From the NCBI GenBank assembly GCA_964650345.1, contig CAZYSI010000002.1:1-44059 (forward strand): 44,059 nt of DNA. Direction: 5' to 3'. The translations under genes and the position numbers were made by a program. Of this stretch, positions 2,711-28,211 are shown in pieces. The notes under the pieces are model-generated. The model did no database searches. It worked only from the letters and a program-made list of their open reading frames with translations, and was not told the origin of the DNA. Each line of letters opens with the position of its first letter. Within the stretch, counting starts at the first letter, position 1. Source of the stretch: an uncultured Candidatus Saccharibacteria bacterium. GTDB lineage: Bacteria; Patescibacteriota; Doudnabacteria; UBA920.

Positions 2711-3388
2711 ATGAACTTTATTGTCGGTAAAAAATTGAACATGACCCAGTACTTTGCGGAAAACGGGGAAGTAATCCCAGTTACCGTGCTTAGCGTACCT
2801 GAAATGGTTGTGACTCAAATTAAAACCGCAGAAGGAAAAGATCAGTACAATGCTGTGCAGTTAGGTGTGTCTAGCAATGTCGCTGGCAGCAAGAACACCA
2901 ATAAAGCAAAGACTGGTCATAGCAAAAAGTCTGGTACTGATGTTGTTTTTGGTAAGTTCGTAGAATTTCGTGTAGACGATACGAAGGATTACGAAGTTGG
3001 CAAAAAGCTCGATGCCGCGACTTTCCAAATTGGTGAAATGGTAAATGTAATTGGCGTAATGAAAGGACGTGGTTTTGCTGGTGCGATGAAGCGTCATGGT
3101 TTTGCTGGTTTTCCAGCATCACATGGTCACGACAAGCCTCGTTCAATGGGATCTATTGGTTCCCGTTACCCACAACACGTTAACAAAGGTCGCCGTATGC
3201 CTGGTCATATGGGCACCCAGAATGTTACCGTAAAGAATTTGCAAGTTGTAGATGTAGATCTAGAGCAGAGTTTAATGATGGTAAAAGGTGCAATTGGGGC
3301 TAATGGCGGTATGATCAAGATTACTTCTACTGGCACTGTTAAGCCATTATTTGTAGCTGCTCCTGAATCAGATAAGAAGAAGAAATAA
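2711..3388 (+). CDS. rplC: 50S ribosomal protein L3
   Basis: N-terminus IVGKKLNMTQYF..GEVIPVTVL and FAGAMKRHGF.G.PASHG are L3 motifs. Confidence 0.97.
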   Translation: MNFIVGKKLNMTQYFAENGEVIPVTVLSVPEMVVTQIKTAEGKDQYNAVQLGVSSNVAGSKNTNKAKTGHSKKSGTDVVFGKFVEFRVDDTKDYEVGKKLDAATFQIGEMVNVIGVMKGRGFAGAMKRHGFAGFPASHGHDKPRSMGSIGSRYPQHVNKGRRMPGHMGTQNVTVKNLQVVDVDLEQSLMMVKGAIGANGGMIKITSTGTVKPLFVAAPESDKKKK

Positions 3389-3394
3389 TAGACG

Positions 3395-4090
3395 ATGAAA
3401 ATTTCTGTATACAATCAAAATGCTGAAGTTACTGGTGAAATCGAATTAAACGATAAGATTTTTGGCGTGAAGCCAACTTTGCACTTGCTGGCAGAAGCAG
3501 TTCGTATTCAAGCAAGTAATGCTCGTAAAGGTTTGGCTAATACCAAGACTCGCGGTGAAGTTAGTGGTGGTGGTAAAAAGCCTTGGCGTCAAAAGGGAAC
3601 TGGTCGCGCTCGCGCTGGCTCTAACAGAAGCCCAATCTGGCGTCATGGTGGCGTAACTTTTGGTCCTACCTCCGACCGTAACTGGTCTTTGAAGATCAAC
3701 AAGAAAGCTAAGACTAAAGCTTTGTTTATGTCTTTGTCCGACAAAGTTACTGATGGTAAATTAATTGTTCTTGAAGGGTTGAATTTAGAAGCTGCTAAAA
3801 CCAAGCAGTTTGTGAAAGTTATGGAAAGCTTTGAAGCTAAGCTAAATGGTTTGGGCAACAAACAGTTGTTAATTACTCCGAAGAAAGATCAATCTATTTC
3901 CCGCGCCGCTCGCAACATCCCACATATTACTGAAGCGCTAGCAACTAGTCTGAACGTTACCGATGTGCTGAAAGCAGATACTTGTGTGATTTTGAAAGAG
4001 AGCTTGCCAGTAATTGAAAAAACTTATTTGAAAACTACTAAAGCACCGGCTAAGCCGGCAGCTAAAGCAGCTAGCAAAACTACTAAATAA
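3395..4090 (+). CDS. rplD: 50S ribosomal protein L4, with Lys/Ala/Pro-rich C-terminal tail
   Basis: TKTRGEVSGGGKKPWRQKGTGRAR.GS.RSP.WR.GG is the L4 motif. Operon position fits. Confidence 0.97.
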   Translation: MKISVYNQNAEVTGEIELNDKIFGVKPTLHLLAEAVRIQASNARKGLANTKTRGEVSGGGKKPWRQKGTGRARAGSNRSPIWRHGGVTFGPTSDRNWSLKINKKAKTKALFMSLSDKVTDGKLIVLEGLNLEAAKTKQFVKVMESFEAKLNGLGNKQLLITPKKDQSISRAARNIPHITEALATSLNVTDVLKADTCVILKESLPVIEKTYLKTTKAPAKPAAKAASKTTK

Positions 4091-4095
4091 CTCTA

Positions 4096-4491
4096 ATGGC
4101 CCTATTTTCTAAAAAAGAGAATACCGAAGAAACTACAGCAGTAGAAACCACTACAACTGACAACGTGGTTACTGAAACCACTCCTGTTTCTGTAGATTTG
4201 GATGCAAAAGCAACCCAGTCTTTAATCGTGCCTCGTCTTTCAGAAAAAGCTGGTCTAGTTAATAAACTAAACAAGTATGTTTTTACTGTTTGGGGTAAGG
4301 CTAATAAAGTCGAAGTTCGCAAAGCGGTTGAAAAGCAGTATGGCGTTAAGATCGATCGTGTCAATATGATTACTATGGCTGGCAAAACTCGCCGCTTTGG
4401 CCGTCGCTACGGTGTAACTCAAGCTTACAAGAAAGCAATTGTTACTCTTACCGCAAACAGCAAGAAAATTGATTTAGTAGAACCAAGTTAA
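4096..4491 (+). CDS. rplW: 50S ribosomal protein L23, with ~40-aa Thr/Glu-rich N-terminal extension
   Basis: Core is PRLSEKA....NKYVF.V...ANK.EV.KAVEK.YGVK...VN. Operon position fits. Confidence 0.93.
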   Translation: MALFSKKENTEETTAVETTTTDNVVTETTPVSVDLDAKATQSLIVPRLSEKAGLVNKLNKYVFTVWGKANKVEVRKAVEKQYGVKIDRVNMITMAGKTRRFGRRYGVTQAYKKAIVTLTANSKKIDLVEPS

Positions 4492-4494
4492 TAT

Positions 4495-5343
4495 ATGGCA
4501 GTTAAACTCTACAAACCAACTACTCCAGGACGTCGTTTCGCTAGCGTGACGGATTTTTCCGTGCTCAGCAAAACCGAGAAGACTCCAAAGGGACTAATTG
4601 TTGCTAAGGGTCGTAAAGCCGGCCGTAACAACTCTGGTAAAATTACTGTTCGCCATCAAGGTGGTGGAGCTCGCAAGAAGATTCGTTTAGTAGACTTTTC
4701 TCGTGTTGATTTGAAGAATATCCCTGGAACCGTTAAAACTATTGAATACGATCCAACTCGCACTGCATTTATTTCTTTGATTTTCTACAAGAATGGTGTA
4801 AAGCGTTACATTGTTACTCCTCAGGACTTGAAAGTTGGCGATACTGTAATCTACAGCGATACTGCAGAAATCCATCCTGGAAACCGTTTGCCTATGTCGG
4901 CAATTCCAATTGGTACAACTGTAAACGATGTTGAATTGATTCCTGGTCATGGCGGTAAAGTAGCACGCAGCGCTGGTAGCTCTCTATTATTACAGAACGT
5001 TGAAGGTGGTTACGCACTTCTTAAGATGCCTTCTGGTGAGATTCGCAAAGTGCGTGAAACCTGTACAGCTACTATTGGCTCTATTTCTAATTCTGATTGG
5101 ATGAACGTCCGTATTGGTAAAGCTGGTCGTAGTCGTCACATGGGTATTCGCCCAAGTGTTCGTGGTAAAGTGATGAACCCAGTTGATCACCCTCATGGTG
5201 GTGGAGAAGGTTCTAACTCTATTGGTATGAAATACCCAAAGACTCCTTGGGGTAAACATGCCATGGGTGTTCGTACTCGCGACAAGAAGAAGCCTAGCGG
5301 CAAGTTCATTATTAAGCGTCGTGTTAACAAACGTTCTAAGTAA
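4495..5343 (+). CDS. rplB: 50S ribosomal protein L2
   Basis: MAVKLYKPTTPGRR ... RGKVMNPVDHPHGGGEG are canonical L2 motifs. Confidence 0.98.
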   Translation: MAVKLYKPTTPGRRFASVTDFSVLSKTEKTPKGLIVAKGRKAGRNNSGKITVRHQGGGARKKIRLVDFSRVDLKNIPGTVKTIEYDPTRTAFISLIFYKNGVKRYIVTPQDLKVGDTVIYSDTAEIHPGNRLPMSAIPIGTTVNDVELIPGHGGKVARSAGSSLLLQNVEGGYALLKMPSGEIRKVRETCTATIGSISNSDWMNVRIGKAGRSRHMGIRPSVRGKVMNPVDHPHGGGEGSNSIGMKYPKTPWGKHAMGVRTRDKKKPSGKFIIKRRVNKRSK

Positions 5344-5367
5344 TAAGACGGTAATATCTATTAATTT

Positions 5368-5691
5368 ATGTCTAGAAGTTTAAAAAAAGGTCCATATATA
5401 GATCCTAGGTTGCTGAAGAAAGTTTTAGCCGGCAAACCAGGTGATAAAATCAAGACTTGGTCACGCTCAAGCAGCATTGGCCCAGAAATGGTTGGATTCA
5501 CATTTGGTGTTCATAACGGCCGCCAGCATGTCGATGTTTTCGTTACTGAATCCATGGTTGGTCACAAGCTTGGTGAATTTTCTCCGACTCGGAAGTTCAT
5601 TCGCCACGGAGGTAAGATGGCTAAGGAACAAGCTGCCGCTGCAGCCGCTGCGTCTAAGCCAGCTGCCGCTGCTCCAGCCAAGAAGAAATAA
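5368..5691 (+). CDS. rpsS: 30S ribosomal protein S19, with Ala-rich C-terminal tail
   Basis: [14 protein letters not shown]......IKTWSR.S.I.PEMVG.TF.VHNG......[14 protein letters not shown]. Confidence 0.97.
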
Positions 5692-5706
5692 CATTATTTA
5701 TTTGGG

Positions 5707-5769
5707 TTCTACAGAAGTGTCTGCTCAGAAAGCGGAGTCCACGCTTTCCTTACAGACACTTCTGTAGAA
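5707..5769 (+). promoter_or_regulatory. Long compound RNA hairpin in the rpsS-rplV spacer
   Basis: Perfect 17-bp inverted repeat ttctacagaagtgtctg (5707-5723) / cagacacttctgtagaa (5753-5769). It encloses a second 7-bp stem gaaagcg (5728-5734) / cgctttc (5742-5748). No flanking T-run. Confidence 0.6.
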
Positions 5770-5790
5770 CAGTAAAAAACATTTATCAAC

Positions 5791-6429
5791 ATGGCAGAAA
5801 AGACTGCACAACTGAATAAGAAAGCTGACAAAGCGCCAAAGCCTGCTGCTGAAAAGGTAAAGCCGGTTGCACCGCTTGTTCGAGCGCACGCGCGTAGTCT
5901 TCGCATTGCTCCTCGCAAAATGCGTTTAGTTACCAATTTGGTAAAGGACATGCGCGTAAACGATGCCGTTACTCAGCTACAGTTCCTAAACAAGAAGGGT
6001 GCGAAGATGTTGCAAAAGCTACTGCAATCTGCGGCTGCCAATGCGGAAAATAATTTCTCTTTAAACCGCGACAATATGTTTATTAAGACTATTACTTGCG
6101 ACATGGGTCCGGTTATGAAGCGATCTTTCCCTCGTGCTCGAGGTAGCGCGTTCATGATCCGCCGTAAGCTTAGTCATGTGAATGTTATTCTTGAAGAACG
6201 AGATGTGAAGCCGAAGAAGAAGCGTGCTCCAGTCGTTGCTAAAGCCGTTCGTCCAGAACCGAAAGATAAAACTTTGGAACTAGATAAAGCAGTTGATCCA
6301 AAATCTGAAGCGATCCAAACCTCAGTAGTAGAAGAGTCGAAGGCAGAGGAAACAGTTAAAGAAGTTCACAACGAAAACACTGCTGAGACTGTAAAAGAAG
6401 AAACCAGCCCTCAGAATCTGAATAAATAA
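5791..6429 (+). CDS. rplV: 50S ribosomal protein L22, with N- and C-terminal extensions (212 aa)
   Basis: Core is A.AR.LRIAPRKMRLV..LV......DA...L.F..KKGA....K.L.SA.ANAE... . Operon position fits. Confidence 0.95.
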   Translation: MAEKTAQLNKKADKAPKPAAEKVKPVAPLVRAHARSLRIAPRKMRLVTNLVKDMRVNDAVTQLQFLNKKGAKMLQKLLQSAAANAENNFSLNRDNMFIKTITCDMGPVMKRSFPRARGSAFMIRRKLSHVNVILEERDVKPKKKRAPVVAKAVRPEPKDKTLELDKAVDPKSEAIQTSVVEESKAEETVKEVHNENTAETVKEETSPQNLNK

Positions 6430-13790: not shown

Positions 13791-16346
13791 GTGCCTTTTG
13801 AATTAAGCACCATTGCCATTGCCGGAATAGTCCTAGCCGTTCTAATCGCGGTGTTTTTCGCATTTCTAGCATATTACTTGCATCGCCATTGGTATTACAC
13901 CAAAGTTATCCTGCCGCGCACTAAGAACTGGGTGTTTATGGAAATACAAATGCCGAAAGAGAGCTCTGAAGATAAAAATTCGCAGCTGCAAAATAACGAA
14001 GAGGGCAAGAAGAATCTCATTGCTGTAGCTGAGCAATTATTTACCTCACTTTCGGAAATTAGTCATGAGAATTGGTGGTTTCAGCCGAAAGAGTATATTA
14101 GTTTTGAAATTGCTTGCACTGACAAGAAGATTTCATTTTACATAAACTGTCCTCAGCATTTACAGCAACTCATTGAAAAACAATTGCAGGCTCAGTATCC
14201 GCATTCATTTGTAGAAATTGTTCGGGCATATAATCCTTTCCAAAAAGGTGGACAGGTGGTTGCAACGGAATTACAAACCACGCGTCCATATGTGTTCCCG
14301 ATTCGTACCTATAAAACCATGGAGACTGATCCTTTGAACTCTTTGACTAACGCAATGTCGAAATTAGGCGAAGGGGAAGGGGCTGCTATTCAATTCATAC
14401 TCTCACCTGCAGGGCATCATTGGCAACACAAACCACGCCATATGGCTTTGGAAATTCAGCAGGGAAAGAATCCGGATAAAGTAGTTAAAGGGGTTGGCGC
14501 GCGCGTGGCTTCGGAAGCGTTTTCAACTTTGAAAGACAGCACTCTGGGGAAAAATAATCCTTCCGCAGCAGGACAGCATCATCAAGATTTGTCGGGAATG
14601 TACAGCCCGATTAATCTGACTCCAATGCAGCAGGAGATGGTGAAGCGGTTTGAAGAGAAAGCCAGTCGACCAGGATTTAAAACTAATATCCGGATTGTTT
14701 GTTCATCTGTTAATCCTGGTGCAGCGGCAGTGAATTTGAATAATATTGTTTCATCTTTTTTGCAATACAACATGCCTCCATTTAATGGCTTTCGAATTAA
14801 AAAGCGAGCTCAGGCCTCGATCGTTAAAGATTTTATTTTCCGCATTTACCGCCGCTATGGCAGCAAAGCCATTTTAAATACGGAAGAACTAGCTAGTTTA
14901 TGGCATTTACCAACGCCATTTTTAGAAACTCCGAATATTAAGTGGCTGCAGTCTAAAAAGGCGCCGCCGCCAGTGAATTTGTCAAAAGAGGGAATTTTAA
15001 TTGGCCGAAATATTTACCGCGGGGTGGAAACGCAAATCTTTGCAGATCGAGATGATCGCCGCCGCCACATGTACATTCTGGGACGAACTGGTGTGGGTAA
15101 AACCGAGATCATGAAGTATATGTCTGTGCAGGATATTAAGAACGGCGAAGGATTATGCATTATCGACCCGCATGGTGATTTCATTGAGGATGTGTTACCA
15201 CACATTCCAAAGGAGCGTGCAGAAGATGTAATTTTGTTTGAGCCGTTCGATACTGAGCGTCCAATGGGTTTGAACATGCTCGAAGTTCGCCAAGAAGGGG
15301 AGAAAGATTTTGCGGTACAGGAAATGATCTCGATTTTTTACAAACTGGTGACTGACCCTGCAATGCTAGGGCCAATGTTTGAACACAACATGCGTAACGC
15401 CATGCTGACTTTAATGGCCGACGAAACTCATCCTGGAACCTTAGTAGAAATTCCACGTATTTTTACAGACGTTGAGTTCCAAAAATACAAGATTAGTAAA
15501 TTACAAGATCCAGTGGTGCGAGCGTTTTGGGAAAAAGAAATGGCTAAGACCAGTGACTTTCACAAGTCGGAAATGCTGGGTTACTTGGTTTCAAAAGTTG
15601 GGCGGTTCGTAGAAAATTCCATGATGCGAAATATTGTTGGGCAGCCCAAGAGCGCCTTTAATTTCCGCGATGTCATGGACAATGGCAAAATTTTGTTGGT
15701 GAATTTAGCCAAAGGTAAAGTTGGTGAAATGAATGCCAAGCTGATCGGCTTAATTTTAGTCAGTAAGATTCAAATGGCTGCTATGTCACGCGCGGATATT
15801 CCCGAAGAAGATCGTAAAGACTTTTATTTGTACGTGGATGAATTTCAAAACTTTATTACCGACGCGTTTTCAAGTATTTTGTCTGAGGCGCGAAAGTACC
15901 GCTTGAACTTAATTATTGGCCATCAGTTCTTAGGGCAATTATCGCAAGGAGCGGGTGTTCAAGGCGCAGGTAGCAATGATCTACGTGATGCTGTATTTGG
16001 TAATGCCGGCAGCATGGTCACATTCAGGATTGGCGTGGAAGATGCCGAAATTATGGCCAAGGAGTACGCTCCAGTGTTTAATGACTTCGATTTACTAAAT
16101 GTCGACCGGTTTAATGCTTTTGTAAAGTTAATGATTAACGGCACTGCCAGTAAACCATTTAACATGGCAACATATCCGTTGGAAAAAGCCACCGAAGAAC
16201 AGCGCGCCACTGCCGCAGCCATTCGTCAGTTATCTCGTTTGAAATTTGGTCGTCCACGCGCTGAAGTTGAAGCTGAAATTCTCGAAGCTAGTCGTGTGGC
16301 TGACATGATGGCAGCCGGTGAGGCTGGAATAGAAAAAACCGTTTAG
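13791..16346 (+). CDS. Membrane-anchored FtsK/HerA/VirD4(TraD)-superfamily P-loop ATPase, type IV coupling-protein-like (851 aa)
   Basis: GTG start. N-terminal TM helix IAIAGIVLAVLIAVFFAFLAYYL. Walker A GRTGVGKT (nt 15081-15104), then CIIDPHGDF. Walker B YLYVDEFQNF (Asp-Glu at 15837-15842). C-terminal GNAGSMVTFR pattern as in coupling proteins. Confidence 0.75.
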   Translation: MPFELSTIAIAGIVLAVLIAVFFAFLAYYLHRHWYYTKVILPRTKNWVFMEIQMPKESSEDKNSQLQNNEEGKKNLIAVAEQLFTSLSEISHENWWFQPKEYISFEIACTDKKISFYINCPQHLQQLIEKQLQAQYPHSFVEIVRAYNPFQKGGQVVATELQTTRPYVFPIRTYKTMETDPLNSLTNAMSKLGEGEGAAIQFILSPAGHHWQHKPRHMALEIQQGKNPDKVVKGVGARVASEAFSTLKDSTLGKNNPSAAGQHHQDLSGMYSPINLTPMQQEMVKRFEEKASRPGFKTNIRIVCSSVNPGAAAVNLNNIVSSFLQYNMPPFNGFRIKKRAQASIVKDFIFRIYRRYGSKAILNTEELASLWHLPTPFLETPNIKWLQSKKAPPPVNLSKEGILIGRNIYRGVETQIFADRDDRRRHMYILGRTGVGKTEIMKYMSVQDIKNGEGLCIIDPHGDFIEDVLPHIPKERAEDVILFEPFDTERPMGLNMLEVRQEGEKDFAVQEMISIFYKLVTDPAMLGPMFEHNMRNAMLTLMADETHPGTLVEIPRIFTDVEFQKYKISKLQDPVVRAFWEKEMAKTSDFHKSEMLGYLVSKVGRFVENSMMRNIVGQPKSAFNFRDVMDNGKILLVNLAKGKVGEMNAKLIGLILVSKIQMAAMSRADIPEEDRKDFYLYVDEFQNFITDAFSSILSEARKYRLNLIIGHQFLGQLSQGAGVQGAGSNDLRDAVFGNAGSMVTFRIGVEDAEIMAKEYAPVFNDFDLLNVDRFNAFVKLMINGTASKPFNMATYPLEKATEEQRATAAAIRQLSRLKFGRPRAEVEAEILEASRVADMMAAGEAGIEKTV

Positions 16347-20748: not shown

Positions 20749-21687
20749 ATGTTGTTATCTTTTTTGAAGAAAAATTTTTATCTACATGAACTGATAATTA
20801 TCCCAGCTTTTATTGGGAGTGTAGGATTGAGTTGGTATTTTAGTCAAAATTACAATTGGTTGCCTCCATTTGCAGAATGGGTAATGCTAATTGCTTTGAT
20901 GTTTTTTATTGGTTTTGTATGTGTAAAAATTGCAACTGTTGGAATTAAGTTATTTTTTAAGTCTGAGATTGCTCAAAACAAATTTAATTATATAAAAACT
21001 TTCCGATTTATTAGAATTTTTTTTGCTATTTTTGTGTTGTTAATAATATATGAGAATTTACAACTCATTATTCCATCAATCGCTCCAACGCTTCAGGACC
21101 CTGCCTTGTTGTATTATGATGAACTGTTATTTGGTTTTTATCCGACTGATCCGTGGATTATGAACCTTGCCAATGTGTATCTCACAGAAATAATGAACGC
21201 AGTATACCTAACTTTCTATTTCTATATCCCTATTATTGCTCTGTTACTGTATGTTCAAAATTCGATTTCCGAAGCTTTGCGTTTTACGTTAGTAATGGTC
21301 ATTGCATTTCTAATCGCATTTGGACTTTATATATTAGTTCCCGGTATAGGACCCTTGTACTATCTTAAAGGTCAATTTCCTGTTGAATTAGACGGAACAT
21401 TGGTGAATTTAGTGCAGGGTATATTGCAGACCAGTGGAATTCCTCGCAATGTTTTTCCCAGCTTACATGTCGCTGGTAGTGCTATTCCGCTATACTTCTT
21501 TTACAAGAACTCTAAACCGTTGTTTATAGTTTGCTTGCCGGTCATTATTTTGTTGTGGCTATCGACCGTTTATTTGAGGTTGCATTACATTATTGATGTC
21601 TTTGCGGGGTGGTTTTTAGCAATTGTTTGCATAGCGCTTGGAACCTATTTATTTACGAAATGGAATGAAAAAACATTGGTTGATTAG
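20749..21687 (+). CDS. PAP2_C-type (sphingomyelin/IPC-synthase-like) lipid phosphotransferase family membrane protein
   Basis: Polytopic membrane protein with FPSLHVAGS and RLHYIIDVFAGW. These match the SGH / HYxxDVxxG signature of the PAP2 superfamily. Confidence 0.7.
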   Translation: MLLSFLKKNFYLHELIIIPAFIGSVGLSWYFSQNYNWLPPFAEWVMLIALMFFIGFVCVKIATVGIKLFFKSEIAQNKFNYIKTFRFIRIFFAIFVLLIIYENLQLIIPSIAPTLQDPALLYYDELLFGFYPTDPWIMNLANVYLTEIMNAVYLTFYFYIPIIALLLYVQNSISEALRFTLVMVIAFLIAFGLYILVPGIGPLYYLKGQFPVELDGTLVNLVQGILQTSGIPRNVFPSLHVAGSAIPLYFFYKNSKPLFIVCLPVIILLWLSTVYLRLHYIIDVFAGWFLAIVCIALGTYLFTKWNEKTLVD

Positions 21688-23185
21688 TTTGTGTTTAGTG
21701 GTTGCCATAATGGCCACTCTACAAATCCCTAACCGAACTCGGTTAGGGGATCCAGACGGGTTTTATCATGCCAAGGCTTCGCAGCTGCTGGAACAAGGAA
21801 ATTTATCAGATACTTTTCCGTACTTAGCATATACCACGTGGAAAGATGGTTATGCTGACCAACACTACCTTTATCATGCACTGCTGATTCCGTTTAATAA
21901 CGTGGATTCTTTGTTCCTGTCCATAATAATATTCGCTAGTCTAGCAGCCCTTGCCTTTTATTTGCTGTTTTCAGTATTGATGGTGAAAAGCAAGCTCTGG
22001 TGGCTACTAATTTTGATGCTGGGTTCAACTGACTTTTTGTTTCGTATTAATTTGGTTAAAGCCAACACGCTATCTTTAGCTTCGTTAGCAGCAATCATAT
22101 ATTTGCTGTGGAAGTGGCATGAAAAAAACAATTATTGGGTTGCTGCGGCAATTGGCGTTGTTAGTTTTTTGTTTGTATGGATTTACGGTGGGTTTGTGTT
22201 TGTCCCTGTAGTATTAGCTTTATATGTACTTTCAGTACTAATAACAGAGCGAAAATTTGATTACCTACCAGGACTTGCCAGTGCACTCGGCATAGTCATT
22301 GGATTACTCGTACATCCACATAACTCACATTTACTAGTTTTACTTTATGATCAGATTTTCCGGGCTGGGCTTGGTGCTGGAGCAGTTCCTGTGGGTAATG
22401 AATGGCTCCCTTTTAATATAGATTGGTTTTTAACTAGCAACATTCCATTGTTGTTGGTCTGGGTTTTAAGTTTAGCCGCAGTAATGGCTAAGATTTGGCA
22501 CAAACAAATTAGTTGGCTGGAGTTGTGGCTGCAGCTCATTGCTGTAGCTTTGTTGCTGTTAACCTTGCGTCATCGTCGGTTCATTGAATACTTTACGCCG
22601 TTTGCAGTATTATCAGCCAGTGTAGTTCTGACACCGTATTTGGCTAAATTAAATTGGCAACAAATTAAACTGAGCATAAAACAACACTGGCAATTAGGTT
22701 TTTCCGCTGGGTTTGTAGTTTTCCTAGTCGCTTCAGCATTTCTATACAACTTCCAGCACGTGTATGATTACTTGCAGGGTGGGGAAGAGACTCATCGGTT
22801 TGAAGAAGTTGCCCAGCAAATTTATACTCACAGTCAACCAGGTGACATTGTAATTAATACTCAGTGGGATCAGTTTCCGCAATTGTTCTATTGGAATAGT
22901 AAAAGTTATTACCCAATTGGGTTAGACCCGACGTTTATGTACATCTATAATGCAGATTTGTACTGGGATCTGCGCAAGATTGCCGATGATAATGAGAGCG
23001 ACTGGGAGTCTGTTGAATATTTGCATTCAATCGCCAGCAAAACTTTGAAAGGCAAGTTTTTATTCTTAGATGCAAATCGTAATATTAATATTCATAAGTA
23101 CATTCAAGAGCACGATACAGAGCAAAAATACTTCCAATTGATCTATGATTTAGACAACGTGGTAGCTTACCGTATTTTGCCGTAA
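21665..23185 (+). CDS. GT-C fold (ArnT/PMT-like) membrane glycosyltransferase candidate
   Basis: About 12 TM helices. The first extracytoplasmic loop reads GDPDGFYHAKAS (acidic DxD-like motif). There is a large C-terminal soluble domain. I prefer the ATG at 21665 (MKKHWLISL); the track start at 21638 is also possible. The gene overlaps the PAP2 gene. Confidence 0.55.
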   Translation: MKKHWLISLCLVVAIMATLQIPNRTRLGDPDGFYHAKASQLLEQGNLSDTFPYLAYTTWKDGYADQHYLYHALLIPFNNVDSLFLSIIIFASLAALAFYLLFSVLMVKSKLWWLLILMLGSTDFLFRINLVKANTLSLASLAAIIYLLWKWHEKNNYWVAAAIGVVSFLFVWIYGGFVFVPVVLALYVLSVLITERKFDYLPGLASALGIVIGLLVHPHNSHLLVLLYDQIFRAGLGAGAVPVGNEWLPFNIDWFLTSNIPLLLVWVLSLAAVMAKIWHKQISWLELWLQLIAVALLLLTLRHRRFIEYFTPFAVLSASVVLTPYLAKLNWQQIKLSIKQHWQLGFSAGFVVFLVASAFLYNFQHVYDYLQGGEETHRFEEVAQQIYTHSQPGDIVINTQWDQFPQLFYWNSKSYYPIGLDPTFMYIYNADLYWDLRKIADDNESDWESVEYLHSIASKTLKGKFLFLDANRNINIHKYIQEHDTEQKYFQLIYDLDNVVAYRILP

Positions 23186-23188
23186 ATA

Positions 23189-23197
23189 TGGTATAAT
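23189..23197 (+). promoter_or_regulatory. Extended -10 element (TGGTATAAT)
   Basis: tggtataat lies 24 nt upstream of the 23222 ATG. Confidence 0.5.
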
Positions 23198-23221: not shown

Positions 23222-26200
23222 ATGTTGTTTCGCATAGGCGAGAGAAGTGGTTCTGATTTTGAAACAAAGCTAGATCCGGAGCGAAAACCGAGTGAAAATA
23301 TTAATGAGCTTGAGCAAACTAAAGCTGCTGAGGTTGATTTTGAAATAGGCAAAGAAGCAAAAGGTAAAGAAGGTATTAATGAACGTTTAGAAGAAGAATT
23401 GGGTGTCGTTGCAGAAAAAATTATTTCAAATAACGATGACTTAGAAAATTTAATAGAGAGTAATTTTTCAGACCGGTCACCAGAGGAAAAACAAAAAATT
23501 CTAGAACAACTGCAATCCGCAGCTGGCAAAGAAGAATTTAAGGGTCATGTTAAGGAGTTTTTGACTAAGTCCTTACCAAAAGATTTTACTGTAGGCGCTT
23601 TGGCTGGTTTCGCAGCTCCGCTAATAGCCAAGATAGCAGTTAAAAATTCAGCACGGGCTTTACTTGCTAGTAAAACATTTGGAGTGAGTGTGGCTGCTGG
23701 CGCGATCGCTAACGCTGTTGTTGAACCATTGAGACATTGGATTCGCAATAAAGAAAAAATTGTTGCAAAAGATATTGAATGGCAATTAGCAGCCGCTCAG
23801 TCGTCGGAGCAGCAAGCCGCTATTATCGCTCAGACCCAGAAAAGTTTGGAGGCAGGTCGGTTTCGTAAAGAGGACGAAGCTGGTGTTCGAGCACTATTGC
23901 AAGAACAGCTTGTAAAGGTACATTTAGAAACAAATAAAGAAGGTTTGGAAGGCAAGGATAAGGTTTTACAAATACTGGAAATTTCAAAATCTACCCGACG
24001 TGCTTTGTTTACGAAAGAGGGCAGGGCAGTGCGAAAGCTAATTAATAGCGTTGAGCTGCTTACTGAAAAAAATAAGGTTGGTTATAAGGAGCTAGCTTCA
24101 GCTTCACTTAAAGGCGCTCTTACTGGCGCTGTGGGGGGCGCTGTGGGGGGCGCACTTCATTATTTCCTTGTCGATGCCGGGTACGGCCAAAAAGCCGTCG
24201 ATGTTATCGGGGAGAAATTAAAGGCTGGTTGGTCTGTTTTGCGAAATATGAAAGGCAGTGGTGGCCCTGCGTTGGCATTTATTAACCCAACCTTAGCAAC
24301 TACTCTTTACGGGGAAGTAAGTAACTACGCTCCAGATGTTCCGGAGAAAGAAATTCCCGACGCTGTTAAGCAGGTCATTGCTAACAAAGCTGAGCAGTCT
24401 TTTACAACAGCACCACAAGGATTGTCGGAGATAAAGGACAAACTAGCAGAACAGGCGTTTTATTCTGATTTAGAGCAGGGTAATGGGGGAACGCATTTGG
24501 CTCGAAAAGCATTACATGATTACAGGGTTAATCTAATTAAATCCGGCGATCCTGATGCTGCAAATCTCTCTACTGAACAATTAATCTTCGCAGAAAATTG
24601 GTTTATTAAGCATAAGTTAGATAAATATGTTGAAGAAGGTGCGGATCATGCCTTTAAGCTAGGGGAGGAAGTAAAACCCTTTGATGGCGCAGATTTGAGA
24701 GAGGCAATTGAGGAAGCAAAAAAACTGAATGAGGAACAGCTAAAGAATTTGCACAAATATGTAGACAAGCTTTCTGAAAAAACCATTCACGAAATGCACG
24801 ATTTACAGAATTTTGAAAATGCAGCGAATGACTATACTAAAAACATTCAATCGCCGCAGCCAGATCAAAGTAATGTCGCACCGGGCACTAACCCTGCAAT
24901 AAGTCCAACACCTGAAAACTATGACAATTATCATCCAGACCCGTTAACCGATGAGGAGCGTAAAGCTATAAATGATTCGCAAGATCGTTTTCAAGAAGAT
25001 CAAGCTACTGGTGGTTCTGAGATAGATAAGCAGATTGAACAGTATTATGAGGACAACAAAGACACTGGTCTGAATGAATCAGAAAAAAATATTGAAAGCA
25101 TTAATTCTAAATTAATTGCAATTGCTAAACTAAATCTCATGGGAGGCATCTTGCTTGGTGGGGCTGCAGCAGGGTTTTATATGTTCAAGAAGTGGCAAAA
25201 AGAACGCCCTACTCCTGAGCAAAGTAGAGAGGCGATTGAACAGCTGCTACGCCAAAGAGAACTAGAGGTTGAGCTGGGAGAAGGCGTGACCGATAAAGAC
25301 ATACATAAGCAGTACAATAAATTAATTCGGGCCATAGAACAAGATTACGCTTATGGTGGTTTAGCAAATCTTGCCGGTAAAAAAATTGTATTAGAAAAAG
25401 CGCATAGTGCTAAGGAGCCCTGGGTAGATCATACTGACCCCGAGGTAATTCATTTACCTGTTTCTGTAAAACTTGATAAGTTAGAAAGGTTTATTAATCA
25501 GCTAGATGATGATGCAATCGATCAAGCTAAAGAGTTTTCAGAACGAAAATTATATGAAGCGGGTGATATTATGTTAGATTTGGAGGATGAGTTTCAAATA
25601 AGAATTAGGTTCATTAACAGAGGTCCGAATGGAGTAAGTTCACAACAATTAATTGACAACCTCGATCGATTCAGAAACGCTTTGCGTGACTTACCAGCAG
25701 AGGATTTGCACGGGACGAACTTCGTTCTAACTTATGCCTTAAATGAGCTCGATAAGTCAAGCGGAGATATCTACATAGATGTGGTAAGGCAAACCGATGA
25801 AGAACTATCAAAAGAACTAAGGCAGTTACTTGGGTTAGCCGAAAATATTGAATCTGGAAGTGGTGCTCCAATTTTGGCTGAGCCAGTTTTTGAAGACGAA
25901 CCAGAAGATGTTGATGAGCCTGACTCGTCTGGTATTGTAGAACCAGAAATTAATCCGGTCGAACAAGCTAGACAGGAGATTCAATCTGAATTCAATGAAA
26001 TAGAACGAAAGCATGGTATGAATATAGCTTTGGCTAATGATAAAACCGCAGAATTATTAATGCGCGACCGCAATTTAATGTTTAATTTGCAAGACGGCAT
26101 TGAAGATGCGAGTCGATTCTATCCAGGGATGTTTTATCCTTTCGAAGGTTTTAAAATAGTTCTTGATGATAAATGGGCTTTAGAAAAAGGGGTGCGCCAT

Positions 26201-27895
26201 ATTAACATAAAACAAGGTACACCAAAGCAAATTGCAGATTTTTTAGTTGACCCAGTGAGAGCATTGCGACGTAATAATGAGCCTGCAGCAAGTGGGGTTG
26301 ATAGCATTGAAGTGCGCAATATCGAAGGTAATGAATCAAATCGATTCTTCGAAGAGAATGAAGTTCAGATTCATGGCTCAGCCTATGAATTTAGTCCAGG
26401 TTCTTTTGCTAAACTTGAGGTTAAAGATTTAGTTGACGCAGGCTTAGAACCAAAGCATACAGTTGTTGTAGGAAGTACTGAGTTGAGAGTTTCTCAGCCT
26501 TATAATTTAGACAACGGTCGTCTGGCAGCGATGGTCTATGTGAAGCAAGGCGATGTTTATGTTCCTCGTTCCTATTACAAAAGTAATTCAGCTGTATCTT
26601 GGCGTTATTTGCCTACATATAGTAGAGAGTATGACCCTGAAACAGATCGTTACAATCGTCATTACGATAAAGGCTATGACGAGGATAGTTTAGATGCTAC
26701 TTGGGAAGTGCAAATGGCTTTAACTAAGATCGCAGCAGAACCGAATAATATTATCAATACTCCAAAGGATCCAGAATTCTATATGTTTGGGACATGTTGG
26801 GAGAAAGACAAAGATAATACTTATCAATTTTCGGTTGACGAGTTAGGTGAAACCTATAATGGTCAGTTTAAAGTACCTGAAAGTGATCGGCAGAAGCACG
26901 AAAATGTAGGCGGGTTTTTGGAATTTACTGGTGTGAATAAACTCGAGCCAGAAAAGGTTGGTTTTGCTAATCACGCTTTTAATCCGAACTTTGCTGAAGG
27001 TCCAATAGCGGAATGGCCTGACTATAGCCACATTTATGGTGCGATCACTAATAGGGTTTTTCAGAGTAAAAATAAGCAGCTTACTTATGTGATTCATGAA
27101 AGCGCAGAGGGAAAGGTGTGGATGAACATTCAGACTAATACTGAATTAACTCCAGTTGGTGTGAGGAAGAAGTGGTTTGATGGCGGAGACTTAACCTCAC
27201 CTGCGTATGAATACAAATATCCTAAGATTTCGAATAGTGGTGAATCTTATGTCTACGATCAAACTGGAGGTTATGGTGATGATTCCGATAGAAGAGGTAG
27301 TTATGTTGACATGTTTAAAAACTACAATAGCAAAATTCCTATTATTAAAGAGTATCGGGAATGGAGAAATAATCCACCCGCATCGCCACAGCCAGAGTTA
27401 GTTATTGAACCAGAGCCGGTTAAGCCTAAGCAAGCAGCTTCGTCTCCTCGAGATAGAACCCTGAAGCCAACTCCAGAAAGCCTTCGTAGCTACCCAATAG
27501 GTATTGATTCTGCGCCAGCAACTGAAGCCTGGGATCTCCTTCACTCGGAATCTAAAGAGAATCCATTTCGATCAAATATTGATGATGTTGTTCCACAGCT
27601 TAGCCAACTGGAAAATTGGGTTAATGAGCAAAGAGACTTCAGTGTAATTTACCCTGAATCTCCAATTGTAAAAGCATTTGAAATGCTGAACACGCTATTC
27701 GATTTTTATTCTGATGACGACCGAGCTCGTTCAACTGTTTCCTGGTTACGAGATACTATTAGACAGTTAAACCGCGTAAGTATGAGGCGAGCAGAAGAGC
27801 AAGCCAATGCTAATTTGGGTCGCGATAATTCAGAAGACCCAATTCCTAAAGTAAAGACCAATCGCTTAGAACGAAAACATGGTAAGAAGGAATAG
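23222..27895 (+). CDS. Giant multi-domain membrane protein (1557 aa), function unknown
   Basis: Uninterrupted 4.67-kb ORF. Hydrophobic Gly/Ala-rich segments: FTVGALAGFAAPLIAKIAV, GALTGAVGGAVGGALHYFLV, LMGGILLGGAAAGFYMF. Acidic coiled regions and an aromatic-rich C-terminal region of ~350 aa. No family motif recognised. Confidence 0.8.
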   Translation: MLFRIGERSGSDFETKLDPERKPSENINELEQTKAAEVDFEIGKEAKGKEGINERLEEELGVVAEKIISNNDDLENLIESNFSDRSPEEKQKILEQLQSAAGKEEFKGHVKEFLTKSLPKDFTVGALAGFAAPLIAKIAVKNSARALLASKTFGVSVAAGAIANAVVEPLRHWIRNKEKIVAKDIEWQLAAAQSSEQQAAIIAQTQKSLEAGRFRKEDEAGVRALLQEQLVKVHLETNKEGLEGKDKVLQILEISKSTRRALFTKEGRAVRKLINSVELLTEKNKVGYKELASASLKGALTGAVGGAVGGALHYFLVDAGYGQKAVDVIGEKLKAGWSVLRNMKGSGGPALAFINPTLATTLYGEVSNYAPDVPEKEIPDAVKQVIANKAEQSFTTAPQGLSEIKDKLAEQAFYSDLEQGNGGTHLARKALHDYRVNLIKSGDPDAANLSTEQLIFAENWFIKHKLDKYVEEGADHAFKLGEEVKPFDGADLREAIEEAKKLNEEQLKNLHKYVDKLSEKTIHEMHDLQNFENAANDYTKNIQSPQPDQSNVAPGTNPAISPTPENYDNYHPDPLTDEERKAINDSQDRFQEDQATGGSEIDKQIEQYYEDNKDTGLNESEKNIESINSKLIAIAKLNLMGGILLGGAAAGFYMFKKWQKERPTPEQSREAIEQLLRQRELEVELGEGVTDKDIHKQYNKLIRAIEQDYAYGGLANLAGKKIVLEKAHSAKEPWVDHTDPEVIHLPVSVKLDKLERFINQLDDDAIDQAKEFSERKLYEAGDIMLDLEDEFQIRIRFINRGPNGVSSQQLIDNLDRFRNALRDLPAEDLHGTNFVLTYALNELDKSSGDIYIDVVRQTDEELSKELRQLLGLAENIESGSGAPILAEPVFEDEPEDVDEPDSSGIVEPEINPVEQARQEIQSEFNEIERKHGMNIALANDKTAELLMRDRNLMFNLQDGIEDASRFYPGMFYPFEGFKIVLDDKWALEKGVRHINIKQGTPKQIADFLVDPVRALRRNNEPAASGVDSIEVRNIEGNESNRFFEENEVQIHGSAYEFSPGSFAKLEVKDLVDAGLEPKHTVVVGSTELRVSQPYNLDNGRLAAMVYVKQGDVYVPRSYYKSNSAVSWRYLPTYSREYDPETDRYNRHYDKGYDEDSLDATWEVQMALTKIAAEPNNIINTPKDPEFYMFGTCWEKDKDNTYQFSVDELGETYNGQFKVPESDRQKHENVGGFLEFTGVNKLEPEKVGFANHAFNPNFAEGPIAEWPDYSHIYGAITNRVFQSKNKQLTYVIHESAEGKVWMNIQTNTELTPVGVRKKWFDGGDLTSPAYEYKYPKISNSGESYVYDQTGGYGDDSDRRGSYVDMFKNYNSKIPIIKEYREWRNNPPASPQPELVIEPEPVKPKQAASSPRDRTLKPTPESLRSYPIGIDSAPATEAWDLLHSESKENPFRSNIDDVVPQLSQLENWVNEQRDFSVIYPESPIVKAFEMLNTLFDFYSDDDRARSTVSWLRDTIRQLNRVSMRRAEEQANANLGRDNSEDPIPKVKTNRLERKHGKKE

Positions 27896-27896
27896 G

Positions 27897-28211
27897 TTAA
27901 CGGCGATAGGAATCGTGGATAATTTTTAGTTCCTGTTCTATTGCTTCATCAATAGTTTTTAGTAGGCCAGGAACTTGAGAAGTGATATAAGAAATTTTTT
28001 CTTCTTTTTGTGGAGAGGGTAACTTTAGAGCGTCTTGATAATCTTCAGCTTGTTGTTCAGTTAATTGGGAAATCGTTACTTCAGTAATTAGGTTATCAAA
28101 GTGGCTGACAAGGGCTTTCACTGTTTCTGCTTTATCTTCATTAGATACGTTAATATCTAGAGCCGCTAAAAGCTCACGAGGGTTAATGTGTAGATTATTA
28201 ATCAAACTCAT
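27897..28211 (-). CDS. Hypothetical small acidic helical protein (104 aa)
   Basis: Convergent with the giant gene; the two stops are separated by 1 nt. A TGATATACT extended -10 lies 6 nt before its ATG. Confidence 0.55.
   Translation of the reverse strand: MSLINNLHINPRELLAALDINVSNEDKAETVKALVSHFDNLITEVTISQLTEQQAEDYQDALKLPSPQKEEKISYITSQVPGLLKTIDEAIEQELKIIHDSYRR

Follow-up and report, generated by a model that had tools for sequence, protein, structure and literature searches.

A giant-protein gene of a Doudnabacteria genome belongs to a carrier-plus-partner module with exchangeable cargo and is a tentative candidate for a host-directed effector

Introduction

Described substrates and chaperones of type IV secretion systems (T4SS) include VirE2-VirE1 of Agrobacterium, the IcmS/IcmW-dependent Dot/Icm effectors, the XVIPCD-bearing X-Tfe proteins of Xanthomonas and Stenotrophomonas, and transmembrane T4SS effectors. 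Polymorphic toxin systems (Rhs, CDI/CdiA, LXG and MuF-type; Zhang, Aravind) combine a conserved N-terminal carrier with swapped C-terminal domains, and the prePAAR effectors of the type VI secretion system (T6SS) are accompanied by Eag (DUF1795) chaperones. Here we describe a gene for a giant protein of 1557 amino acids (aa), P0001, in a stretch of 44,059 nucleotides (the window; positions 1 to 44,059 of contig CAZYSI010000002.1, assembly GCA_964650345.1) from an uncultured Candidatus Saccharibacteria bacterium of the GTDB lineage Patescibacteriota; Doudnabacteria; UBA920. The giant gene is one member of a lineage-specific module of two genes, seen in ultrasmall bacteria of the Saccharibacteria type, in which a carrier and a small acidic partner are combined with exchangeable cargo. 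This module is built like polymorphic effector systems and chaperoned type IV and type VI substrates, but has no known trafficking domain, and its adjacent gene does not co-vary with the cargo.

To our knowledge, no substrate of a patescibacterial type IV system has been described. In Saccharibacteria the T4SS is essential for epibiotic growth, has no relaxase and may export proteins (PMC10633639), and homologues of the coupling protein are widespread and mostly distant from virB4 (PMC12102498). Actinobacterial hosts detect Saccharibacteria via a kinase/phosphatase/FHA pathway (PMC13622651). The locus described here offers a concrete candidate, with carrier, cargo and partner encoded near a conserved coupling ATPase.

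Comparison with Described Systems

The giant module resembles polymorphic toxin systems in its conserved N-terminal carrier with swapped C-terminal domains, in being accessory and fast-evolving, and in the recurrence of its cargo domain, here called domain X, at the extreme C-terminus of unrelated giants in many lineages. However, the giant protein is without RHS, PAAR, LXG, TPS, haemagglutinin repeats and MuF, a conserved tail follows its variable cargo, and no toxin fold was recognized; the adjacent small gene is conserved across cargoes and does not co-vary with them as an immunity gene would. With T6SS prePAAR effectors the module shares N-terminal hydrophobic helices, a small dedicated partner and a variable C-terminal domain, but no PAAR, Rhs or Eag homology was found in giant or partner. 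We know of no T6SS in Patescibacteria.

Like type IV substrates, the giant protein is large, lacks a Sec signal and appears to have a conserved C-terminal module with a basic end; it is encoded next to a small acidic protein, its transmembrane (TM) segments are weakly hydrophobic, and a VirD4-like coupling ATPase lies in its neighbourhood. In contrast to them, neither giant nor partner had detectable sequence or profile similarity to the comparators, the coupling ATPase belongs to the core genes and occurs also without the module, and a VirB4 apparatus was not identified in the assembly. For these substrate/chaperone systems the comparison draws in part on PMC8740702 and PMC12981334. A further parallel is found in membrane-anchored PP2C phosphatases (SpoIIE, PF07228; PstP-type), as P0002, a sister protein, has a PP2C/SpoIIE-like domain attached to the same carrier on its cytoplasmic side, and a small partner of ~100 aa is encoded beside it. 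The parallel ends where P0001 itself has no PP2C, its partner has no STAS match, and the producers lack cognate kinases above the cut-off and FHA proteins. In another consortium, 'Chlorochromatium aggregatum', giant epibiont proteins are reported to pass to the partner bacterium (10.64898/2026.03.19.712371). These symbiosis proteins are very large, as is P0001, and intracellular in their producer, as predicted for the large C-terminal part of P0001, but they are RTX-like and haemagglutinin-like and have no sequence or domain relation to P0001.

A Conserved Carrier with Exchangeable Cargo

P0001 was searched against genomes of the same family, and the retrieved open reading frames (ORFs) were compared by all-against-all BLAST. 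P0001 divides into an N-domain, a hydrophobic helix (TM4), an orphan middle region, domain X and a helical C-tail (Table 1). It matched the family N-domain profile with E 5.7e-144 and shares with the carrier family the TM helix with K/R flank and the acidic gene of ~105 aa directly 3'. The sequences that follow the N-domain were mostly unrelated among relatives: among close ones the cargo is PP2C in P0002 (aa 751-1010) and domain X in P0001 and G076a, and the others carry unrecognized sequence. P0002 was 26% identical to P0001 over aa 56-543 and has its phosphatase instead of the C-terminal domain of P0001, in which Pfam detected no PP2C catalytic domain (PF00481, PF13672, PF07228). The exchange is clearest between P0002 and G076a, whose N-domains are 44% identical and which have the tail in common, with PP2C as cargo in one and domain X in the other. 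In G082 both ends of the module are kept, with almost no cargo between them.

A tail module of ~150 aa is common to the subgroup P0002, G082, G076a, G093, P0007 and P0008. The tail profile matched P0001 weakly over aa 1460-1533 (E 1.3e-3 in a small database), collinear with the profile. The net charge of the last 50 aa is +5 in P0001, +5 to +8 in the tail subgroup and about 0 in other members; a charge of at least +5 over the last 30 aa is found in 10.5% of the ORFs of the genome.

The giant gene is real and not an artefact. Its frame, starting with ATG, is open over 4.7 kb without interruption and agrees in its layout with full-length relatives from other genomes, with which it is collinear. 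On an independent ENA contig (L075) an ortholog is preserved over the last 243 codons, with 81% aa identity, and the convergent small gene again lies one base past the giant stop, as in the window. The ratio of nonsynonymous to synonymous substitution (dN/dS, Nei-Gojobori) of the 3' end against L075 was ~0.07 (dN 0.12, dS 1.8, near saturation), and this low value points to purifying selection on close orthologs. The assembly or frameshift artefact that the initial annotation, made from the letters of the window, had named as a danger to the ORF call was therefore not borne out. P0001 is the largest ORF of the window, as that annotation stated; two larger ORFs, of 2520 and 1964 aa, lie on other contigs of the genome (G000, a 0.81-Mb assembly of 63 contigs, 93.6% complete).

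The whole protein matched no family in Pfam, NCBIfam, PADLOC or PDB sequences, a word-based homologue search with it returned P0002 alone, and profiles A2, A4 and A6 gave nothing meaningful in Pfam and PDB-sequence searches. The description as a giant multi-pass hydrophobic protein without recognizable catalytic motif holds in the light of these searches and of hydropathy. Composition bore out the annotated overall acidity, the Pro/Asn/Gln-rich spacer (27 P/N/Q in aa 501-600) and the aromatic-rich C-terminal region thought to be globular, where every 100 aa of aa 1101-1400 contain 13-16 F/W/Y and most other stretches of that size 3-9. This region proved to be a globular, conserved domain with clear bounds, domain X (aa 1040-1379). 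At that stage neither the cassette-like modularity nor the conserved small gene for the partner was recognized, nor was it seen how widely the C-terminal domain is distributed; the search for homologues and their neighbourhood that the annotation proposed uncovered a module with relatives, partner and variable island. No internal repeat was found in aa 656-1045, and a word-based search with the middle region (aa 656-1039) returned the query itself only.

A Small Acidic Partner

By tblastn, a small partner gene was found directly 3' of the giant gene in 15 of the 16 N-domain loci, as well as at L074, where it directly follows P0002, and at the G093 fragment; it was absent at all six syntenic loci without a giant gene. 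It lies on the same strand as the giant in most loci and is convergent in the window and in G075. The partner of the window was 31% identical to the L074 copy (E 7e-16) and matched the partner profile with E 1.6e-33. Between a PP2C-type locus and a domain-X-type locus the partner is 49% identical, so that it tracks the carrier and cannot be the immunity protein of one particular cargo. An acidic pI (4.05-4.72) was found for each of the ten copies examined, and dN/dS of the partner against L075 was ~0.05 (Nei-Gojobori, dS near saturation). DUF5663 (PF18908) reached 23.0 bits (E 1.2e-4) with the G025 copy and 14.8 bits with the G075 copy, below the gathering cut-off of 23.7, and the copy of the window had no match in Pfam, including DUF5663 and STAS. 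By analogy with secretion chaperones, which are also small and acidic, the partner may be chaperone-like.

Variants of this arrangement were seen in several genomes. In G076 two N-domain carriers of 1286 aa (L021:2694-6554, -) and 1029 aa (L027:1475-4564, +) are encoded, each with its own small partner downstream. In G007 an extra ORF of 882 aa separates the giant gene from the small partner (L031:477-3125 and 3127-6303, both -), and G036, G037 and G039 encode proteins of ~830-860 aa in which the N-domain has a C-terminal position. In the genome of the window, neither the N-domain nor domain X nor the partner was found to have a paralog.

Domain X Is Widespread and Probably a New Fold

A four-sequence profile of domain X, searched against 1.84 billion representative proteins, matched 1044 clusters (50% identity) with an E-value of 1e-3 or less, 426 of them with 1e-30 or less, in proteins of 264-5186 aa; a metagenome scan with the single protein P0001 found domain X relatives only. 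The family is defined by profiles A2 and A4 and by the motifs RSYYxSNSxxxWRYLPxY, YxKG, GT, TPAxEY and YVDMFxNY. P0001 matched the domain X profile over its full length (aa 1040-1379; E 8.3e-136, positions 2-306 of ~306) with the family motifs, and keeps 57 of the 66 positions with at least 80% conservation. Of the nine positions lost, five lie close together at aa 1265-1278, where P0001 has I, H, S, K and Q in place of F, C, D, R and E. At this place the family has a charged/Cys cluster, F-C-x-D-x-x-G-R-x-W-...-E (D 95%, R 91%, E 88%, C 85%), which is kept in the relatives G076a, G029 and G093 but reads I-H-E-S-A-E-G-K-V-W-...-Q in P0001. With the charged cluster substituted, the domain X copy of P0001 may bind rather than catalyze.

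The AF2 model of domain X, built from an alignment of 40 sequences, is mostly beta and was predicted with confidence (pLDDT 91.8, pTM 0.89). Foldseek found no relative of it in PDB (best E 0.024, TM 0.13) or BFVD (best E 0.0057, TM 0.10), profile searches of PDB sequences were empty, no Pfam family covered the domain in 91 scanned members, and no internal duplication was detected (hhalign probability 0.1). Domain X appears to be an undescribed family and, judged from the model, is probably a new fold. It co-occurs in the 91 scanned members with FHA (3), PP2C (2-3) and TPR domains; FHA adjoins it in P0098 and P0150, and PP2C precedes it in P0048 and P0143.

Named holders of domain X include several classes of Patescibacteria, Omnitrophica, Planctomycetales and metagenome-assembled genomes (MAGs) of 0.9-1.6 Mb from uncultured Gammaproteobacteria; the Patescibacteria, Omnitrophica and Gammaproteobacteria in this list depend on hosts or have reduced genomes. 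Of the 150 best-matching proteins, 98 are shorter than 800 aa. A hydrophobic segment (signal peptide or TM) is absent in 96 of these 98, and in 67 of the 98 domain X ends 5 residues or less from the C-terminus; many giants of 1800-3900 aa among the 150 likewise have it at their very C-terminal end. No conserved neighbour or immunity gene was found in 28 domain X loci when ORFs of at least 100 aa were compared. Known trafficking domains of Pfam and NCBIfam were absent from P0001, 16 family members and 22 giant domain X proteins. A search for IcmL was uninformative: neither the Gammaproteobacteria MAGs nor the control genomes gave a match. With more than 1000 clusters, a confidently predicted fold without relative in PDB, BFVD or Pfam, occurrence in giants of several host-dependent phyla and a link to FHA and PP2C, domain X is a good target for structure determination and biochemistry.

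In L041 (Omnitrophica UBA6253) and L044 (uncultured Planctomycetales), domain X has an internal position in ORFs that exceed 5600 aa and continue beyond either end of the 17-kb loci. Several antisense ORF matches between the two loci also point to giants that are homologous over their whole length.

Predicted Topology of the Giant Protein

No signal peptide was found in P0001. The three Gly/Ala-rich hydrophobic segments of the initial annotation are real, but the first consists of two helices, so that four are present (Kyte-Doolittle maxima 1.37-1.81; Table 1), all Gly/Ala-rich and each with small-xxx-small zipper motifs. A hydrophobic helix follows the N-domain in most relatives, and directly after it a K/R cluster stands in P0001 and in nearly all relatives that have the helix (KKWQKERP, KLKKHLKH, RRIAKNR, RGRQRKAE). 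By the positive-inside rule, this cluster places cargo and tail (~900 aa) on the cytoplasmic side of the producer; only aa ~318-626 are predicted to be extracytoplasmic. The absence of a signal peptide and the predicted cytoplasmic position of the large C-terminal part disfavour the simple giant surface protein that had been proposed.

The AF2 model of the N-domain is all-helical and of low confidence (mean pLDDT 57), with pLDDT values of 75-91 only in aa ~404-534. Foldseek searches on AF2 segments, which the initial annotation had suggested, were run with the models of domain X and the N-domain; the low-confidence N-domain model, like that of domain X, returned no fold relative. ABC-transporter TM domains and ClyA/Smh pore-formers were rejected as fold matches of the N-domain, being noise at E >0.5. 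The N-domain profile also matched, weakly (E 0.04-1), the hydrophobic AGAAAAGAVVGGLGG-type core of mammalian prion protein; homology was rejected, as the match is compositional and due to the Gly/Ala-rich helix 3 (24116-24172) alone.

The Module Is Accessory and Diverges Rapidly

Based on the N-domain profile, the module is present in 24 of 95 family genomes and 8 of 28 genera, and in a sample of the class in 32 of 146 genomes, all of one order. In four further genomes of the genus the syntenic interval is without a giant gene. Between the window and the contig of P0002, the N-domain of the giant is ~26% identical and the 515-aa membrane protein encoded directly upstream 53%; at the coupling ATPase, identity across the genus is 76-88%, whether the giant gene is present or not. 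Patchy presence and low N-domain identity in comparison with neighbours indicate that the module is accessory and diverges or recombines much faster than its flanks. Being accessory and fast-evolving is typical of interface molecules, in agreement with the role that the initial annotation had assigned to the protein.

A Pkinase domain above the Pfam cut-off and an FHA domain were absent from G000 and seven relatives, while control genomes gave matches. These eight genomes seem to be without Hanks-type Ser/Thr signalling, and PP2C or domain X would therefore have no obvious endogenous partners in the producers.

Possible Roles of the Giant Protein

We tentatively favour, short of an even chance, the reading that the giant is a polymorphic, host-directed effector with a chaperone-like partner. 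Synthesized without a Sec signal, the giant protein would be retained or accompanied by its small acidic partner; at cell-cell contact the hydrophobic N-domain would insert it or hand it over, possibly through patescibacterial type IV machinery or the neighbouring coupling ATPase, and the cargo would act inside the host bacterium. This reading is favoured by the combination of a conserved carrier and tail with swapped cargo, the acidic partner that tracks the carrier, and the weakly hydrophobic helices. It is also favoured by the accessory and fast-evolving nature of the module, by the bias of domain X to host-dependent lineages and to the C-termini of giants, and by producers without obvious endogenous partners for PP2C or domain X. 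As domain X is fused to FHA and PP2C elsewhere and PP2C occupies this slot in the sister protein, Ser/Thr phospho-signalling of the host would be the likeliest target. The PP2C cargo of the sister copy is an activity that could counter kinase/FHA sensing of epibionts by the host.

A number of observations weigh against a host-directed effector. Secretion or transfer has no direct support, and effector status is inferred. The positive-inside rule puts the cargo in the cytoplasm of the producer, which suits a resident protein equally well, and domain X is associated with FHA and PP2C, which typically serve signalling in the cytoplasm. Positive charge at the C-terminus is modest, is missing in part of the family and is weakly informative as a type IV signal, and the tail match of P0001 is weak. 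Conserved C, D, R and E of domain X are substituted in P0001, and no immunity-like neighbour was found in the 28 domain X loci. The link to the VirD4-like ATPase is positional only, as this core gene is present also without the giant, and VirB4 was not identified with PF03135 and AAA_10 models in the 93.6%-complete, 63-contig assembly. PF03135 gave nothing there, and the AAA_10 matches were FtsK and a 625-aa paralog of the coupling ATPase. In addition, the t4cp homologue of S. epibionticum is not essential (PMC12102498).

Several of these observations would suit a resident transmembrane signalling or scaffold protein, the main alternative, which we consider somewhat less likely than an effector. 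Its outer helical loop of ~310 aa (aa 318-626) would sense something at the envelope or on the surface of the host, PP2C or domain X would act in the producer as interchangeable modules on the cytoplasmic side, and the acidic partner would be a regulator or substrate, as in SpoIIE/SpoIIAA. The K/R clusters after TM4 in P0001 and nearly all relatives, which indicate a cytoplasmic cargo, fit such a protein, as do the absence of a signal peptide from P0001 and of export signals from free-standing domain X proteins, the company of FHA and PP2C as classic cytoplasmic signalling modules, the lack of a cargo-specific immunity gene, and the strong purifying selection on close orthologs. However, the producers have neither a Hanks kinase above the cut-off nor an FHA protein as signalling partner, most genomes of the genus do without the module, outputs are exchanged between close relatives while the putative sensor is retained, and divergence is far faster than in flanking genes; dispensability, output swapping and fast divergence are traits of conflict or interface genes rather than of housekeeping signalling. 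The same traits, together with the patchy distribution, the location in a variable island and the two-gene architecture with modular effector slots, could belong to an anti-phage or other conflict module of the abortive-infection type, with a membrane-anchored variable effector, whose Gly-zipper helices could permeabilize the membrane, and a small regulator. We regard this as quite improbable, since PADLOC matched neither giant, partner, relatives nor neighbours, no nuclease, NTPase or sensor domain typical of defence systems was found, and the gene has a fixed chromosomal position beside core genes and not in a mobile defence island.

Very improbable is the surface protein or adhesin of the initial annotation, displaying its C-terminal globular domain outside as a host-binding interface. 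An envelope-gene setting (lectin cassette, PAP2, membrane glycosyltransferase-like gene, SLT hydrolase), the accessory and fast-evolving gene, and an aromatic, beta-rich domain that could bind ligands agree with it. Yet the signal peptide is missing, the charge distribution at TM4 leaves the C-terminal 900 aa inside, neither export signal nor anchor is present in 96 of the 98 short domain X proteins, Pfam detected no cell-wall anchor or known adhesin repeat, and a PP2C phosphatase as alternative cargo and fusions of domain X to FHA and PP2C elsewhere do not suit an adhesin. An assembly or frameshift artefact, or a pseudogene in decay, has a negligible likelihood as an explanation of the ORF. 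The middle region without relatives could be read that way and no further supporting evidence was found, whereas the unbroken 4.7-kb frame, its collinearity with full-length relatives, the L075 ortholog of the 3' end with its matching gene order and low dN/dS, and the confident fold prediction of domain X all argue for an intact gene.

If the giant is indeed a host-directed effector, a more specific and clearly unlikely version can be put forward. Giant and partner would then be the first substrate-chaperone pair of a repurposed patescibacterial type IV machinery or of an orphan coupling ATPase. Domain X, a new fold that is either catalytic or binds within a phosphothreonine pathway, would be injected by epibionts and other host-dependent bacteria to silence kinase/phosphatase/FHA threat-sensing of their bacterial hosts, for example the Esr-Esx pathway of Actinomycetaceae.

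Features of the Locus and Its Neighbourhood

The coordinates of the module and its neighbours are given in Table 1. A candidate promoter precedes the giant gene, and no Shine-Dalgarno sequence was found in its short leader.

Table 1. Features of the giant gene, its partner and neighbouring genes in the window (positions of the window; aa positions refer to P0001).
Feature	Position	Strand	Basis or remark
Core VirD4/TraD-like coupling ATPase, left edge of variable island	13791..16346	+	Pfam TrwB_AAD_bind, NCBIfam TraD
515-aa polytopic membrane protein directly upstream of the giant gene	21638..23185	+	Conserved beside giant; no Pfam match
Extended -10-like element TGgTATAAT, candidate promoter, 25 nt upstream of giant ATG	23189..23197	+	Sequence read; promoter function putative
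Giant ORF P0001, 1557 aa, stop codon included	23222..27895	+	L075 ortholog fragment 81% identity, dN/dS ~0.07
N-domain, aa ~50-545, lineage-specific, all-helical	23369..24856	+	Common to proteins of 826-1557 aa; AF2 mean pLDDT 57
Gly/Ala hydrophobic helix pair, probable hairpin, aa 121-142 and 148-170	23582..23731	+	G160 invariant in family alignment
Glycine-zipper helix 3, aa 299-317, ALTGAVGGAVGGALHYFLV	24116..24172	+	G298, A299, G302 invariant
Helical subdomain, aa ~404-534, motif T..AR..LHDY..N ... AED, predicted extracytoplasmic	24431..24823	+	Conserved columns, model, charge flanks
Pro/Asn/Gln-rich spacer, aa ~536-600	24827..25021	+	Composition
TM helix 4 (TM4), aa 627-655, then KKWQKERP	25100..25186	+	Hydropathy; equivalent in most relatives
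Orphan middle region, aa 656-1039	25187..26338	+	No relative, no internal repeat
Domain X, aa 1040-1379, beta-rich, widespread	26339..27358	+	Profile search, AF2 model
C-terminal helical tail, aa 1460-1557, basic end	27599..27892	+	Weak match to ~150-aa tail profile
Small acidic partner, 104 aa, pI 4.7	27897..28211	-	Convergent, one base from giant stop codon

In many relatives the site of the giant gene is bounded by secY, a small gene and the VirD4/TraD-like ATPase on one side and by dnaX on the other. In the window the gene lies, as annotated, between glycosylation genes and a wall-hydrolase island, flanked by PAP2 and the 515-aa membrane protein and by an SLT-type hydrolase. The counterpart of the 515-aa protein upstream of P0002 was found on L074, and a gene of the same size lies upstream in G082; as it is conserved beside the giant gene, this membrane protein may be functionally linked to the module.

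In a fifth genome of the same genus, G085, an unrelated ORF of 1516 aa directly follows the VirD4-like gene (L070:2936-7486, +); it has no Pfam match, no N-domain and no small partner. The island thus seems to host different giant genes in different species. The second coupling-ATPase-like paralog of G000 is the 625-aa ORF mentioned above (G000:C16:1505-2287, -, L072; AAA_10 34.9 bits), and relatives encode a coupling-ATPase-like protein of 586-607 aa that is 44-46% identical to aa ~409-830 of the VirD4-like protein of the window.

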